Of a stretch of DNA of 55,632 nucleotides, positions 24,990 through 50,648 are shown piece after piece. Below the pieces are notes generated by a model. It saw only the letters and a program-made list of their open reading frames with translations. It had not been told where the DNA came from and made no database searches. Where the stretch lies: positions 1 through 55,632 of the forward strand of contig JAZQTA010000064.1 in NCBI GenBank assembly GCA_045630385.1, read 5' to 3'. The stretch is from Eubacteriales bacterium. Its GTDB lineage: Bacteria; Bacillota; Clostridia; Oscillospirales; CAG-272. The translations under genes were made by a program, and so were the position numbers. The stretch's first letter is position 1, and each line of letters opens with the position of its first letter.

Positions 24990-26975
24990 TCAATTCTTCG
25001 CTTGAAGACGGAAGGATTCGGTTGCTGCATCCCAATAGGTTACGTAGTTTTCGTTCATGCAAACAAGCTTCGCCTCGTCTCCCTCGGTGTAAACGTAGCC
25101 CTCAGCAGGCTTCAGATTGAAGGCCGCGAAGTTAGCCGCCGCTTCGTCTGCGGTGAACTTGAAGCCGCTGAAGTCAACCGTGAGCTTCACCTGGTTCACG
25201 TTCAAGCCGATCGAGCAGTGTACAGTTCCGAGAAGCTCAACCGCGCCAACGGTCAGATAATCGTTACCGGTGAAGAGAATATCGTCATCGATATATCCGC
25301 CGAGCAGAGATACGGGGTTGTTGAGCGCGTAGATTGCCGCCTGTCCGCTTTCTGCATCGTTGTCATAGATTCTACCGCCGGTGATCGTCAGAGAAGGCCA
25401 ACGATAGTGATTCATGCGGAATACGTTTCCAAGCTCGCCCGCAACGTTGTCATGGATCTCCACGTTGCCGGAAACAACGTACTTATCTGCGCTTCCGCCC
25501 CAAACAACACCGCCGCCGCTTGCCGCATAGTTGTCAGCAATTTCACCGCCGTTGAAGAATACGTCGAGGTTGTTGCCGCTCCAGATCACGCCGCCGTTGT
25601 TTGCGGAATTGTTCTTGATTTCGCCGCCGTTCATTGTGAAGGAAACAACTCTTCCGCTCTGACCGTCAACGGTACGAACCACGCCGCCGATGCCACCATA
25701 GTTTCCGTTGATCTTACCATCGTTGATCACGATGTGACCGCCGCCCCAGATGGCACCTGCGCCGCCGCCGTTGTTGTTAAGGATCTCGCCGCCATCCAAG
25801 GTGAGTGTTCCGCCGCCGCGCGTTGCCAGGCTGATGGCGTTGCTTCCGTCGTTGTTCTGAACTACAGCGCCCTCACCGAGAACGATATTTGCGTTACCGC
25901 TTGTGGAGATGATATTCGCAGTGGTGGCAATTCCCGAGTTAGTAGTTCCGCGAAGGAGCACGGGATCGATTGCACCCGTCCATTTTGCACCGCCGTCCAA
26001 CGTGATGTTGGAAAGCGTGACGGTGTAGCCGCTGGCTACGGAGATAAGAGGCTTACCTGCCATATCTTCGGTCCTGTAGACCGTGATGCCGTCGCCGTCG
26101 ATTACAGCATTATCGGTAAATATCTGCGTTCTGCCACGCAGCGAGAGGGTGGCAACAGGGTAGCGCTCGTTCATGTAATCAATAAAGTTGTCATTGATAA
26201 CGAGGGGCTCTGCAAGAAGTACGTCGTCTCCGTTTTCAATTGCCGTAAAAAATGCATTCAGGGTCTGTACAGAGGTTTTGTAGGTTGCATCTGCATCATA
26301 CAGATTGTTCTCAAAATCTGCCTCATGTGTGTACTGTGTCGCAACGAGCTGGATGGAGAAGTTTGCGCCGATCGAAAGAAATTCGTAGTTGTTATCTGCG
26401 CTTTCTCTCATCTTGAAGGCAATCGTAGCCGTTGCCTCGCCAACTCTCTCGTAATTGCCGGCAGCCGTCTCGCCCTCGGGCAGGATCGCACCGTAGATAG
26501 CACCGTCCTTGTCCTCGATCATGTCACGAAGCGTTCCAACAGGGGTAAGGGCTTCCAGGTCGGTGCGGCCGATCTGTCTTGCACCTTCGATGAAGTAAAC
26601 GTCGATCACGTCTGCAAGAATGGAAAGCGTCTGCACGTTCTCGTCAAAAATAGGTTCGATCATCAGCTTATACTTGAATGCCAATGAGCCCTCATTTTTG
26701 ATTTTGATGTGTTTTGCTTCAACGTAACCGGGCTCCCATTTGTCATAATTGAAGATCGGTCCTACAGAAGCATCCTTCCAGGTAACGCTTGCGGGATCCT
26801 CATCCGCATTTGCCCAGTACATAGCAACATCAAGCGATCCTGCCTTGATGATGTTAGTATCGGAGCTAACGGAATCGGTGAACCACGCAAACGTCGTTCC
26901 GATGAGCATAGTGAAGCATACAACCAATGCGATCAAGCTGCTGAACAATGCTCTTCGAGTGTTTGAATTCGTCAT
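24990..26975 (-). CDS. secreted TasA/camelysin-like N-terminal domain fused to a parallel beta-helix (Pmp-like GG[AV][IV]W repeats) protein
   Basis: 661 aa with RBS AAGGAGG. The SipW-type signal peptide region ALVVCFTMLIGTTFAWFTDSV is followed by IIKAGSLDV...NEGSLAFKYKL...QLVATQYTHE (TasA fold). Residues from about 330 onward are Gly/Asn-rich beta-helix rungs (GGGAGAIWGGGHIVINDG, NNGGVIWSGNN, SGGGVVWGG). No LPXTG, SLH or C-terminal TM anchor is seen. Confidence 0.7.
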   Translation of the reverse strand: MTNSNTRRALFSSLIALVVCFTMLIGTTFAWFTDSVSSDTNIIKAGSLDVAMYWANADEDPASVTWKDASVGPIFNYDKWEPGYVEAKHIKIKNEGSLAFKYKLMIEPIFDENVQTLSILADVIDVYFIEGARQIGRTDLEALTPVGTLRDMIEDKDGAIYGAILPEGETAAGNYERVGEATATIAFKMRESADNNYEFLSIGANFSIQLVATQYTHEADFENNLYDADATYKTSVQTLNAFFTAIENGDDVLLAEPLVINDNFIDYMNERYPVATLSLRGRTQIFTDNAVIDGDGITVYRTEDMAGKPLISVASGYTVTLSNITLDGGAKWTGAIDPVLLRGTTNSGIATTANIISTSGNANIVLGEGAVVQNNDGSNAISLATRGGGTLTLDGGEILNNNGGGAGAIWGGGHIVINDGKINGNYGGIGGVVRTVDGQSGRVVSFTMNGGEIKNNSANNGGVIWSGNNLDVFFNGGEIADNYAASGGGVVWGGSADKYVVSGNVEIHDNVAGELGNVFRMNHYRWPSLTITGGRIYDNDAESGQAAIYALNNPVSLLGGYIDDDILFTGNDYLTVGAVELLGTVHCSIGLNVNQVKLTVDFSGFKFTADEAAANFAAFNLKPAEGYVYTEGDEAKLVCMNENYVTYWDAATESFRLQAKN

Positions 26976-27059
26976 TTTTTATTACCTCCTTAATTAGTTT
27001 TGAGACGAATATAGGCTGTATCTGAAAGCATATCGCTTTGAGATCTTGGATGAGGAGAA

Positions 27060-27084
27060 CACATAATGCCCATTATGTGATCAA
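27060..27084. repeat. left inverted repeat (IRL) of the candidate invertible switch
   Basis: CACATAATGCCCATTATGTGATCAA is the exact reverse complement of 27306-27330. It contains an internal dyad, CACATAATG-CC-CATTATGTG. Confidence 0.95.
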
Positions 27085-27123
27085 AAGCATCTCCTTTTTT
27101 TAAAGAGATTATCTGTGAGGTTT

Positions 27124-27152
27124 ATTATAACATAAAAAAAAGAAAAATGCAA
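27124..27152 (-). promoter_or_regulatory. extended -10 sigma-A promoter inside the switch, currently pointing at the TasA-like gene (ON orientation)
   Basis: The minus strand reads TTGCAT (27152-27147), a 17-bp spacer ending in TG, then TATAAT (27129-27124), giving TGTTATAAT. It uses the same TTGCAT-N17-TATAAT architecture as the promoter at 906-934. Confidence 0.6.
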
Positions 27153-27194
27153 TAGCTTTAGATACATATTTCAAATCAAAAATAAAAGAATTTT

Positions 27195-27269
27195 CAGCAT
27201 AACAAAAAGGCCTCTTAAAATCACAGCAGGGGTGATGGCAAAAAGGCTCTTTTTGTTATGCTGTTTTTT
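27195..27269 (+). terminator. long hairpin plus T6 inside the switch; terminator-like only when read on the plus strand
   Basis: A 15-bp perfect stem, CAGCATAACAAAAAG (27195-27209) pairing with CTTTTTGTTATGCTG (27249-27263), followed by TTTTTT (27264-27269). Read on the minus strand, the hairpin is followed by AAAATTC instead. Confidence 0.55.
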
Positions 27270-27305
27270 GTCGTGCTTTCTAAAAATATAAAATCAAAGT
27301 ACCGA

Positions 27306-27330
27306 TTGATCACATAATGGGCATTATGTG
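27306..27330. repeat. right inverted repeat (IRR) of the candidate invertible switch
   Basis: TTGATCACATAATGGGCATTATGTG is the exact reverse complement of 27060-27084. The central dinucleotide is GG here and CC in IRL. Confidence 0.95.
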
Positions 27331-27358
27331 ATTCGGATCGGCTTAGGTCGGTCTTTTT

Positions 27359-28198
27359 TTATAGGATCAGTCGCATGTTTTCCATTTTCCTTCTATGCTC
27401 GGCGGCGGTCGTCGTGGTGTAAATTCGTGTGGTGTTGATGCTGGTGTGGCCGAGAATATCGGCAAGCTTTGCAATATCCTTTTCCATTCCGTAAAAGGTT
27501 CGTGCAAAAAGATGCCGCAGATTATGGGGGTAAACCTTAGCGGGAGAAACATGTGCATCACAACAGAGATTTTTCATATCGCGCCATATATTGTGGCGGC
27601 TGAGCTGTTTTCCGCTTTTTGTGATAAATATCGCGCCCGACTTTATGCTATGCTCCTTGCAGTATTGTAATAGCCTCTTCCGAAGCTCGTAAACGATAAA
27701 AATGCGTCGGTTTTTTCCCTTGCAGTTGACAAAGGCCTCGCCGCACCTTGCCGCTTCCACGGTGATGAAAGGAAGCTCACTTATACGGATGCCGCTACCG
27801 CAGATCGTTTGCAGAACGAGGCACAGTCGATCGTTCCCTTTTTGTCGAGCTGTTTCGATGAGCCTCCGATATTCCGCCTTGGTTAGCTCCTTTTCCTCGG
27901 AGCAGAAGGCGGATTTTTGTATTTTGTATTGCTTCGCGCACAGCTCATAAAGACCGAGAAAACGAAAAAAACTGTTGATGGCTGCGAGCATGGAGTTGGC
28001 GCTTGTAACCGAGTATTTGCTCAAAAGATGGCTTTTATATTCCAAAACCGCTACTTTTGTTAAAGACTTTTTCTCCAAAAAAGAGAAAAAAACGTGCAAG
28101 TCATGTAAGTATTTTTCGATCGTTGCGGCGCTCCGTTCCTCTTTATACAGATGTTCCTTAAAAGCTTGCAGTTCTTTTTGATGCAAAAAATGTCCCAT
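27359..28198 (-). CDS. small tyrosine site-specific recombinase (XerC/XerD/integrase family)
   Basis: 279 aa. It has an N-terminal SAM-like core-binding domain. The catalytic residues are R in GSGIRISEL, H-x-x-R in HNLRHLFAR, H in LGHTSI and Y in TTRIYT. The gene looks more AT-rich than the window by eye. Confidence 0.85.
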   Translation of the reverse strand: MGHFLHQKELQAFKEHLYKEERSAATIEKYLHDLHVFFSFLEKKSLTKVAVLEYKSHLLSKYSVTSANSMLAAINSFFRFLGLYELCAKQYKIQKSAFCSEEKELTKAEYRRLIETARQKGNDRLCLVLQTICGSGIRISELPFITVEAARCGEAFVNCKGKNRRIFIVYELRKRLLQYCKEHSIKSGAIFITKSGKQLSRHNIWRDMKNLCCDAHVSPAKVYPHNLRHLFARTFYGMEKDIAKLADILGHTSINTTRIYTTTTAAEHRRKMENMRLIL

Positions 28199-28302
28199 TT
28201 TTAAACCTCCGATTGTGATTGTTATTGTTATTTTACCACAAAATGAATGTTATGATTATGATTTTTGCATTCTTCAAGATCTGAAATTTAAAAGTGCTTC
28301 TT

Positions 28303-28343
28303 TTAAAAGAGAGCGCCACCGTTCCCGAGAGAGCGGTGGCGCT
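28303..28343 (-). terminator. intrinsic terminator after the ABC operon
   Basis: A 10-bp perfect stem (AGCGCCACCG 28312-28321 pairing with CGGTGGCGCT 28334-28343). The minus-strand continuation is CUCUUUUAAAAG. Confidence 0.5.
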
Positions 28344-28367
28344 TGCCCTTTGATGAAGACCGGTTGG

Positions 28368-29138
28368 TCACATCTGCTTTTTGTTGAAAAGCGGTACGCT
28401 TACCGCGAAGAGCGAAATGCTTATGAAAGCGGTGATAAGGATGGAAGGCAAATACTCCTTGGGGTCTTTCGCACCGTAGATCAGAGAATTGCCGTCCATC
28501 AGCATTATTGGTAAATATTTGTTTGCTTTTGGAACCAAACCGATGAGATAAAAAGCAAAAACAGTGCCGCCCGTTCCGAGCAAAACGCCCGTGCTCGCGC
28601 TCGAAAGTGTGGAGAAAAAGACGATCAGCGCTATGATAAACGAACCGAAGAGCCATTGGCAAACGATGGAGAAGAGCAGATTTTTTGCCACGGAATTGTC
28701 CCAGAAATAGGTGTTGTAGGCGTAGGTGATCCCGAAGCAAAGAAAATATCCGCCGCTCCATGAAAGCATGAGCACCGCCGCCTTGGAAGCGAGCGCCTTG
28801 TGGCGGGAAAGCCCCTTCGTCAAGGAAAGGATCAAAGTGCCCGAGGCGTATTCCTTCGTAAAGATCGCGCTTTCGAGCAAAACGAAGGCGATCAGCGCCA
28901 TGGGAATGTTCTTGAAGAACTGCACCCACGAATCCATCGCGCTGACGGTCACACCGGTGACGGTCATGCCGCTTTCAGCGAGAGAATCCGCCATCATTTC
29001 AAGAAGCCAAGGGGTGAGCTTTGCGATCGCAGGATTCATGATTCCGAAAACGGAAAACAAAGCAAGAAGGATAAAAAGTCTTCCGGAGCGGATCTGCTCA
29101 AGAACTTCTTTTTTCATAAAGGCAAGCAAGGCGTTCAT
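28368..29138 (-). CDS. ABC-2 type transporter permease
   Basis: 256 aa with six predicted hydrophobic segments. Its ATG overlaps the upstream ATPase stop as ATGA (29135-29138). Confidence 0.7.
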   Translation of the reverse strand: MNALLAFMKKEVLEQIRSGRLFILLALFSVFGIMNPAIAKLTPWLLEMMADSLAESGMTVTGVTVSAMDSWVQFFKNIPMALIAFVLLESAIFTKEYASGTLILSLTKGLSRHKALASKAAVLMLSWSGGYFLCFGITYAYNTYFWDNSVAKNLLFSIVCQWLFGSFIIALIVFFSTLSSASTGVLLGTGGTVFAFYLIGLVPKANKYLPIMLMDGNSLIYGAKDPKEYLPSILITAFISISLFAVSVPLFNKKQM

Positions 29139-50574: not shown

Positions 50575-50589
50575 AAAAATCAAAAACAT

Positions 50590-50631
50590 AAAAAGCATCT
50601 GCGGCAGAAAAATCTGCCGCAGATGCTTTTT
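50590..50631. terminator. bidirectional terminator between GH31 and fhs
   Basis: A 13-bp perfect stem, GCATCTGCGGCAG (50595-50607) pairing with CTGCCGCAGATGC (50614-50626). It is flanked by AAAAA and TTTTT. Confidence 0.8.
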
Positions 50632-50648
50632 ATATCATAATCCAATGA

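Follow-up and report, generated by a model that had tools for sequence, protein, structure and literature searches.

While promoter inversion as a means of phase variation has been well studied in Bacteroides, Escherichia coli, and Clostridioides difficile, the abundant, uncultured Clostridia of animal guts have received much less attention in this respect. Here, we analyze a stretch of 55,632 nucleotides from an Eubacteriales bacterium of the order Oscillospirales (assembly GCA_045630385.1, contig JAZQTA010000064.1; the whole stretch is referred to below as the window), in which a tyrosine recombinase gene, a pair of inverted repeats enclosing an AT-rich segment, and the gene of a secreted TasA-like protein lie side by side. 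This locus is very likely a recombinase-driven invertible promoter (inverton) that acts as an ON/OFF switch for the secreted protein. The same reading had been proposed in a first-pass annotation, and it is now supported mainly through relatives of the locus, in which the cassette is conserved at about 60 loci, occurs in both orientations, and has its breakpoints at the repeats.

Several described systems resemble the window locus in part. In E. coli, fimS is likewise an inverted-repeat-bounded segment (about 300 bp) that carries the promoter of a surface structure, lies next to tyrosine recombinase genes (FimB/FimE), and gives rise to ON/OFF phase variation. The window locus differs from it in having one recombinase instead of two, in the nature of that recombinase (Xer-like and well below the FimB/FimE model cut-offs), in its repeats (25 bp with an ACATAA-N6-TTATGT core, compared with 9 bp at fimS), and in the transcription of the recombinase gene toward the switch, with two dedicated terminators that would insulate its states. 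The cwpV switch of C. difficile, which together with flgB and cmr is served by RecV, shares with the window locus a clostridial host, a tyrosine recombinase, an orientation-dependent intrinsic terminator, and a cell-surface protein as its target. The cwpV promoter is found outside the segment, and a distant recombinase gene serves several switches (PMC2784873); the window locus, by contrast, has its predicted promoter within the segment, and every switch of the family comes with an adjacent recombinase and a central sequence of its own. The window switch would therefore join a promoter flip of the fimS type to a terminator that depends on orientation, as at cwpV (PMC2784873). The Xer recombinases (XerA and XerC/D) have in common with the window recombinase a two-domain build, the catalytic residues, and a short dyad site with a central region of about 6 bp; whereas Xer acts on a single dif site, the window has two inverted sites beside the gene, an arrangement for inversion and not for dimer resolution.

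Elements of similar dimensions have also been catalogued in Clostridia. In a 2025 survey of a defined gut community, 'inverton group 139' comprises 33 invertons (32 in Clostridia; 17 strains), nearly all of which adjoin a tyrosine recombinase of 'invertase group 35' (PMC11892184). The examples given there include Intestinimonas butyriciproducens (13-nt repeats, 228-nt gap) and Clostridium sp. D5 (25-nt repeats, 206-nt gap), and flipping was measured in the cultured gut strains, where the read or orientation ratios of the group shift over culture passages (PMC11892184). Judged by description and not by sequence comparison, the dimensions and the tyrosine recombinase linkage reported there match those of the family to which the window locus belongs, and this family is probably inverton group 139/invertase group 35, already catalogued in bulk (PMC11892184). 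The survey describes no site logic, terminators, or TasA-like target (PMC11892184), and our literature search found no report on the site logic of the family, on its terminators, or on phase-variable TasA-like proteins. The window locus is very probably a new, well-defined inverton, although the kind itself is already known.

The switch is delimited by two 25-nt arms that are 100% complementary and 221 nt apart, namely the left inverted repeat (IRL) at 27060-27084 (CACATAATGCCCATTATGTGATCAA), with the core ACATAA-TGCCCA-TTATGT at 27061-27078, and the right inverted repeat (IRR) at 27306-27330, its exact reverse complement, with the core ACATAA-TGGGCA-TTATGT at 27312-27329. The arms agree at 25/25 positions, the central 6 nt included, and the IRL repeat continues on its inner side (GATCAA). 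They enclose the AT-rich, 221-bp invertible segment (27085-27305; like the two sites, assigned to neither strand), which holds the predicted promoter and an inner terminator, and the whole unit with both repeats measures 271 bp. This pair is the sole long-range perfect inverted repeat in the window, the remaining inverted repeats of at least 16 nt being short-loop hairpins or imperfect pairs, and both arms contain a CACATAATG/CATTATGTG dyad around CC or GG. When up to 3 mismatches are allowed, the 20-mer CACATAATGSSCATTATGTG occurs twice in the window (0.00 expected from shuffles), and the family consensus ACRTAA-N6-TTAYGT is found at the two arms only (0.10 expected). The outer flanks, GAGGAGAA on the left and ATTCGGAT on the right, differ, so there is no target-site duplication. 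Perfectly complementary 25-bp arms, a 9-bp dyad around an asymmetric CC/GG in each, and flanks lacking a target-site duplication had all been part of the first-pass annotation, and each was borne out.

In general, the sites of tyrosine recombinases have conserved binding arms, and the crossover region must match between partner sites; the asymmetry of this region sets the orientation of a site, and inverted sites lead to inversion. A recombinase scan of GTDB species representatives returned 77 loci, among which the window's own species is not represented, and 76 of them come from gut or rumen Clostridia-type metagenome-assembled genomes (MAGs) with Oscillospiraceae, Christensenellaceae, Acutalibacteraceae, or 'Eubacteriales' labels. 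The closest non-self relative of the recombinase is 77% identical. We compared 60 non-duplicate loci with recombinases 48-79% identical, and a motif-free search for repeats covered the 800 nt 3′ of each recombinase. Where enough DNA was available, the longest inverted-repeat pair nearly always begins about 28 nt past the recombinase stop, with arms of 13-38 nt and a gap of 205-300 nt. The resulting family layout is the recombinase stop, about 28 nt, an ACATAA-N6-TTATGT site, 205-300 bp, the inverted site, and a gene, the core usually being extended by TGTA on its inner side. The central hexamer takes 39 forms across the 60 loci, is the same in both arms in 59 of them, and is never palindromic; conserved arms combined with matching, asymmetric hexamers are what the rules of tyrosine recombinase sites predict. 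An alignment of 22 close relatives further gives the block order of site, A-run, hairpin, about 60 nt, -35, -10, about 47 nt, and site. The recombinase family as a whole is very large, its proteins are almost all 279 aa long, and no relatives were found on viral contigs.

The first gene 3′ of the switch differs among the relatives and may be TasA-like, SipW-like peptidase, SPFH-like, or type IV pilin-like, with giant surface proteins (>1000 aa) and enzymes resembling nonribosomal peptide synthetases or AMP ligases found at other loci; the cassette is hence a module, used for the most part in functions of the envelope. SipW-like signal peptidases follow the switch in L023, L030, L064, and L076, and type IV pilin-like proteins in L034 and L071, the SPFH-like proteins begin with MAQIAEIIKYEGDN, and loci with a varied first gene also include L035, L037, L058, L062, L066-L069, and L072.

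Natural inversion is observed directly at homologous loci. The P0027 lineage consists of seven contigs from different metagenome samples with an identical recombinase that is 75% identical to that of the window. Between L001-L004 and L005-L006 of this lineage, a 242-nt block lying between 18-nt arms is the exact reverse complement, and the flanks are 100% identical; the seventh contig, L007, ends 82 nt past the recombinase stop, at the switch. In the P0009 lineage, whose recombinase is 76% identical to the window's, the locus has three sites, and L121 equals L120 after two nested in-silico inversions, with positions 1-358 identical and a 1-nt change in a T-run as the sole later difference. All three sites are therefore active, and this locus has four states. 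At least three pairs of closely related species-representative MAGs provide further cases: the inner segment is 99% identical as the reverse complement between L016 and L019, 97-98% between L021/L022 and L024, and 98% between L028 and L029, where the flanks are 93% and 99% identical. The breakpoints of these inversions fall exactly at the repeats. A difference in the gene after the switch within the P0027 lineage (236 aa in L001, 197 aa in L004) was also considered as an inversion and rejected, as the DNA is identical and the two differ in gene calling.

Some side observations concern the same loci. Three-site members comprise L001-L006, L017-L023, L032, L053, L064, L077, L079, and L120-L126; they carry two copies in direct orientation, spaced about 32 nt apart, and a third that is inverted, and contigs with an identical recombinase differ in whether the extra copy lies on the left or on the right. 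The P0051 lineage is represented by ten contigs, each with just one consensus-matching site. Among the contig ends of L009-L084, 20 of the 31 downstream ends lie within 1 kb of the recombinase stop, and 7 ends fall inside the switch versus 1 in the matching upstream bin. This pile-up fits mixed orientations that break assemblies but offers weak support, as short MAG contigs bias the count. Many database contigs with these recombinases are just 1-2 kb long, and heterogeneity at the switch may fragment the assemblies that carry them.

The predicted promoter of the window occupies 27124-27152 on the minus strand, with the -35 element TTGCAT at 27152-27147, a 17-nt spacer, and the extended -10 element TGTTATAAT at 27132-27124, whose hexamer is at 27129-27124. 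The extended -10 is perfect (TGnTATAAT), and the -35 matches TTGACA at three of six positions, which is why a consensus promoter scan did not report the element. It faces the 661-aa gene, with a predicted transcription start near 27117, and the same scan gave no minus-strand match between IRL and the ATG of the target. The placement of a TTGCAT-17-TGTTATAAT promoter aimed at this gene, the lack of another one between IRL and the ATG, and the view that the assembly had caught the ON state had been put forward earlier; the positions were confirmed, and the direction of the predicted promoter indeed corresponds to ON. In the relatives, a simple pattern was used (TTGnnn, 16-18 nt, TAnAAT, usually with TG). 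It matches 45 of 61 distinct related segments, compared with 7.0 +/- 2.5 in shuffles, and in 32 of 51 matches a distance of 45-50 nt separates the -10 from the end of the segment, the window value being 45 nt. By promoter direction, 13 distinct related segments would be ON and 32 OFF.

Two predicted terminators, neither of which was among the features listed in the first-pass annotation, accompany the promoter. The inner terminator (27195-27269, plus strand) consists of a 15-bp perfect outer stem (27195-27209/27249-27263) with inner pairs, followed by TTTTTT at 27264-27269. Its hairpin folds at -33.4 kcal/mol (z = -4.9), with none of the shuffles as stable, and it is oriented antisense to the promoter; on the opposite strand the tail is AAAAUUCUUUUAUUU, a poorer terminator tail. 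A stable hairpin with a T-run, upstream of and antisense to the promoter, is present in 37 of 45 related segments. The small terminator (27335-27360, plus strand), a GATCGGC/GTCGGTC hairpin followed by T7, is located between IRR and the recombinase stop and is the sole terminator-like match at 26700-28500 in a terminator scan. It reads from the switch toward the recombinase gene, antisense to it, and an equivalent hairpin with a T-run occurs in at least 38 of 63 related loci. The stems vary by locus (GATCGGC/GTCGGTC, CCGATACC/GGTATCGG, and GCCGCC/GGCGG), which suggests that the function has been conserved and not a sequence inherited. As predicted elements, the two conserved terminators make the switch more than a bare promoter flip. 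Separately, part of the outer stem of the inner terminator, 27196-27202/27256-27262 (GCATAAC...GTTATGC), resembles the recombination half-site ACATAAY/RTTATGT, and a strict half-site-like stem pair is found in 12 of 61 related segments (0.04 expected); the stem might serve the recombinase as an accessory binding site or be left over from a duplication of the site.

Conservation of the inner hairpin raises the question of whether the terminator, instead of the promoter, is the working part. In such a switch, similar to cwpV (PMC2784873), the target would be read through from the recombinase gene, inversion would place or remove the inner terminator, and the internal promoter would be secondary or inactive. 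Neither reading of the sequence nor the terminator scan revealed a sense-strand terminator of the recombinase before the switch, as this explanation would have it, and the inner hairpin, kept in 37/45 relatives, has a proper T-run on one strand only. The promoter-like element, however, has a perfect TGnTATAAT, exceeds its frequency in shuffles more than 6-fold, and keeps a fixed distance of 45-50 nt to the repeat. It is also always on the strand opposite the terminator, as a combined promoter-plus-insulator design predicts. We consequently regard a switch of the pure terminator type as improbable, and an invertible promoter insulated by terminators remains the preferred interpretation.

The presumed invertase is encoded at 27359-28198 on the minus strand, outside the invertible segment, as an intact open reading frame (ORF) for a 279-aa Xer-like tyrosine recombinase; its stop codon is 28 nt from IRR, and the gene is transcribed toward the switch. 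Profile scores are 83.3 bits for PF00589 (cut-off 27.1) and 36 bits for PF02899. The catalytic R (GSGIRISEL), K (CKGKNRR), HNLRH, LGHTS, and TRIY motifs align with XerA (4a8e) and likewise with XerD, and the closest solved structures are 4a8e (E = 1.5e-21), 5hxy, and 1a0p. These results agree with the earlier description of a 279-aa tyrosine recombinase with a full catalytic set beside IRR. The best curated model is NF040815 (XerA) at 140.5 bits, below its cut-off of 220, and the protein also falls below the XerD (116 vs 330) and XerC (113 vs 335) cut-offs; with the FimB/FimE-type models NF007371 and NF007370, the scores are 36.5 and 26.5 bits (cut-offs 222 and 221). By these scores, the recombinase belongs to a separate Xer-like clade and is neither a FimB/FimE-type invertase nor an Xer equivalog. 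Upstream of the gene, the hairpin at 28297-28358 is a probable minus-strand terminator of an ABC-transporter operon, and it is followed by a candidate extended -10 (TGGTAAAAT) for the recombinase, a weak promoter candidate.

Taken together, these features suggest the following mechanism. The adjacent recombinase, the likely enzyme of the flip, would bind both ACATAA-N6-TTATGT sites and exchange strands within the central 6 bp (TGCCCA/TGGGCA), where cleavage is expected to occur. Given the inverted orientation of the sites, the proposed outcome is a flip of the 221-bp segment, so that the window locus itself, like its relatives, would exist in two forms. In the ON form, as assembled, the internal extended -10 promoter would fire through IRL into the 661-aa gene. 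In the OFF form, the promoter would face the recombinase gene at its 3′ end, with the RNA made from this promoter halted after about 100 nt by the terminator at 27335-27360, while the inner hairpin with its T-run would face the recombinase mRNA and block read-through into the target. Provided that the predicted promoter and terminators work as described, a population would be a mix of cells with and without the surface protein.

Several points weigh against this interpretation. What pairs the recombinase with the sites is conserved adjacency only; the simple promoter pattern is missing from 16 of the 61 related segments, and the predicted window promoter has a weak -35 (3/6). The collections searched hold no second sequence of the window's species, and hence the flipped form of this exact locus has never been seen. 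In addition, the contig was assembled straight through the switch, and one orientation therefore dominated in the source sample. The exact window recombinase was found on no other contig, and the 25-mer repeat had no match in the metagenome collection. The 18-mer core ACATAATGCCCATTATGT is present as one copy each in 31 unrelated metagenome contigs (L086-L116; soil, termite gut, and others), with no close recombinase relative nearby and one weak 27% match; in several of these contigs the 18-mer is near a contig end or beside another GACATAAT.

A single observed orientation on a contig that runs through the region would also suit a frozen relic, in which repeats and recombinase have been kept while the locus is permanently ON and no longer switches, and the weak candidate promoter upstream of the recombinase points the same way. 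A relic is nevertheless very unlikely: the two arms differ at none of their 25 positions, the central 6 nt among them, the uninterrupted recombinase ORF encodes every catalytic residue, and close relatives are demonstrably active. Scarcely credible is a mobile-element feature, either a remnant of a miniature inverted-repeat transposable element (MITE) or insertion sequence, or the attachment sites of an integrase-borne element: the recombinase does score as 'phage integrase family', GC content is lower at 27-29 kb, and the P0027-lineage cassette adjoins a large serine recombinase in varying upstream contexts, but the unit is single-copy in the window and has no target-site duplication, its inverted sites would invert rather than excise, it always lies about 28 nt from the recombinase stop in about 60 loci, its natural variants are inversions and not presence/absence, and it has housekeeping neighbors and no viral relatives. 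The first-pass annotation had likewise considered a MITE unlikely, a judgment upheld by the single window copy, the differing flanks, and the fixed position relative to the recombinase among relatives. An invertible promoter accounts best for the locus.

The gene predicted to be under control of this promoter lies at 24990-26975 on the minus strand and encodes a 661-aa secreted protein, with its ATG at 26975 and a ribosome-binding site (GGAGG) at 26989-26985; it is monocistronic because the next gene is convergent. A SipW-dependent-type signal peptide is recognized (TIGR04088, 24.2 bits vs a cut-off of 19), and PF12389 (camelysin/TasA, Peptidase_M73) matches marginally, with 22.1 bits against a cut-off of 22.5, covering profile positions 8-83 only. 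Homologues of about 640 aa occur in similar MAGs, many of them carrying a PF12389 annotation; one bears the name 'SipW-dependent-type signal peptide-containing protein [Oscillospiraceae bacterium]'. No match was found between the target protein and PDB sequences. An AlphaFold model built with 38 aligned sequences (mean predicted local distance difference test score, pLDDT, 83.9) has an N-terminal beta-sandwich; in the PDB, its closest counterpart, though a weak one, is the TasA fibre 8aur (E = 7e-3, probability 1.0, TM-score 0.41). A beta-helix makes up the C-terminal two thirds, with weak matches to Ag43, tailspikes, and pectate lyases. The earlier label 'TasA-like' would therefore hold for the signal peptide and the N-terminal domain and does not extend to the C-terminal two thirds, a predicted beta-helix. 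The nearest homologue, 62% identical (L117, 2145-4941), directly follows a gene for a 279-aa SipW-like signal peptidase, at a locus with no switch and no recombinase; a sipW gene was not found in the window.

The neighbors of the locus in the window are ordinary chromosomal genes, including those for an ABC transporter, EPSP synthase, cardiolipin synthase, a two-component system, and a rhamnosidase-like protein. GC content is 0.43-0.46 at 27001-29000, covering the switch and the recombinase, compared with approximately 0.50-0.55 on either side, which could reflect either acquisition of the cassette or AT-rich regulatory DNA. Elsewhere in the window, a strong hairpin with a perfect 21-nt stem and a 4-nt loop is located at 50588-50633. 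In L001-L006, a 501-aa large serine recombinase (Resolvase + Recombinase + Zn_ribbon) is encoded about 750-2250 nt upstream of the tyrosine recombinase, and the DNA beyond it varies (cobW genes, NAD synthase, or a phage-type integrase), so that in the P0027 lineage the switch and its operon may border on a mobile element.

Beyond the single locus, we lean, by a modest degree, toward the view that the relatives constitute a large uncharacterized family of portable 'plug-in' cassettes in gut and rumen Clostridia, each built from an Xer-like invertase of its own, a pair of sites, a promoter, and two terminators, which share their arms, keep a locus-private 6-bp crossover, and serve many envelope genes, some having a third active site and four states. 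If this is true, several cassettes could coexist in one genome without cross-recombination, the window would hold the first phase-variable TasA-family protein, and the family would provide orthogonal recombinase/site pairs ready for use; that the crossover sequences are private to each locus suggests that a set of mutually orthogonal recombinase sites exists in nature. The family can be recognized from sequence by a 279-aa recombinase, a site about 28 nt past its stop, the core ACATAA-N6-TTATGT, a promoter placed 45-50 nt short of the distal site, and a pair of terminators, which allows its switches to be annotated in MAGs and could explain some assembly breaks. For the bacteria themselves, TasA-like and other envelope genes are predicted to be heterogeneously expressed, which bears on colonization and on phage and immune pressure.

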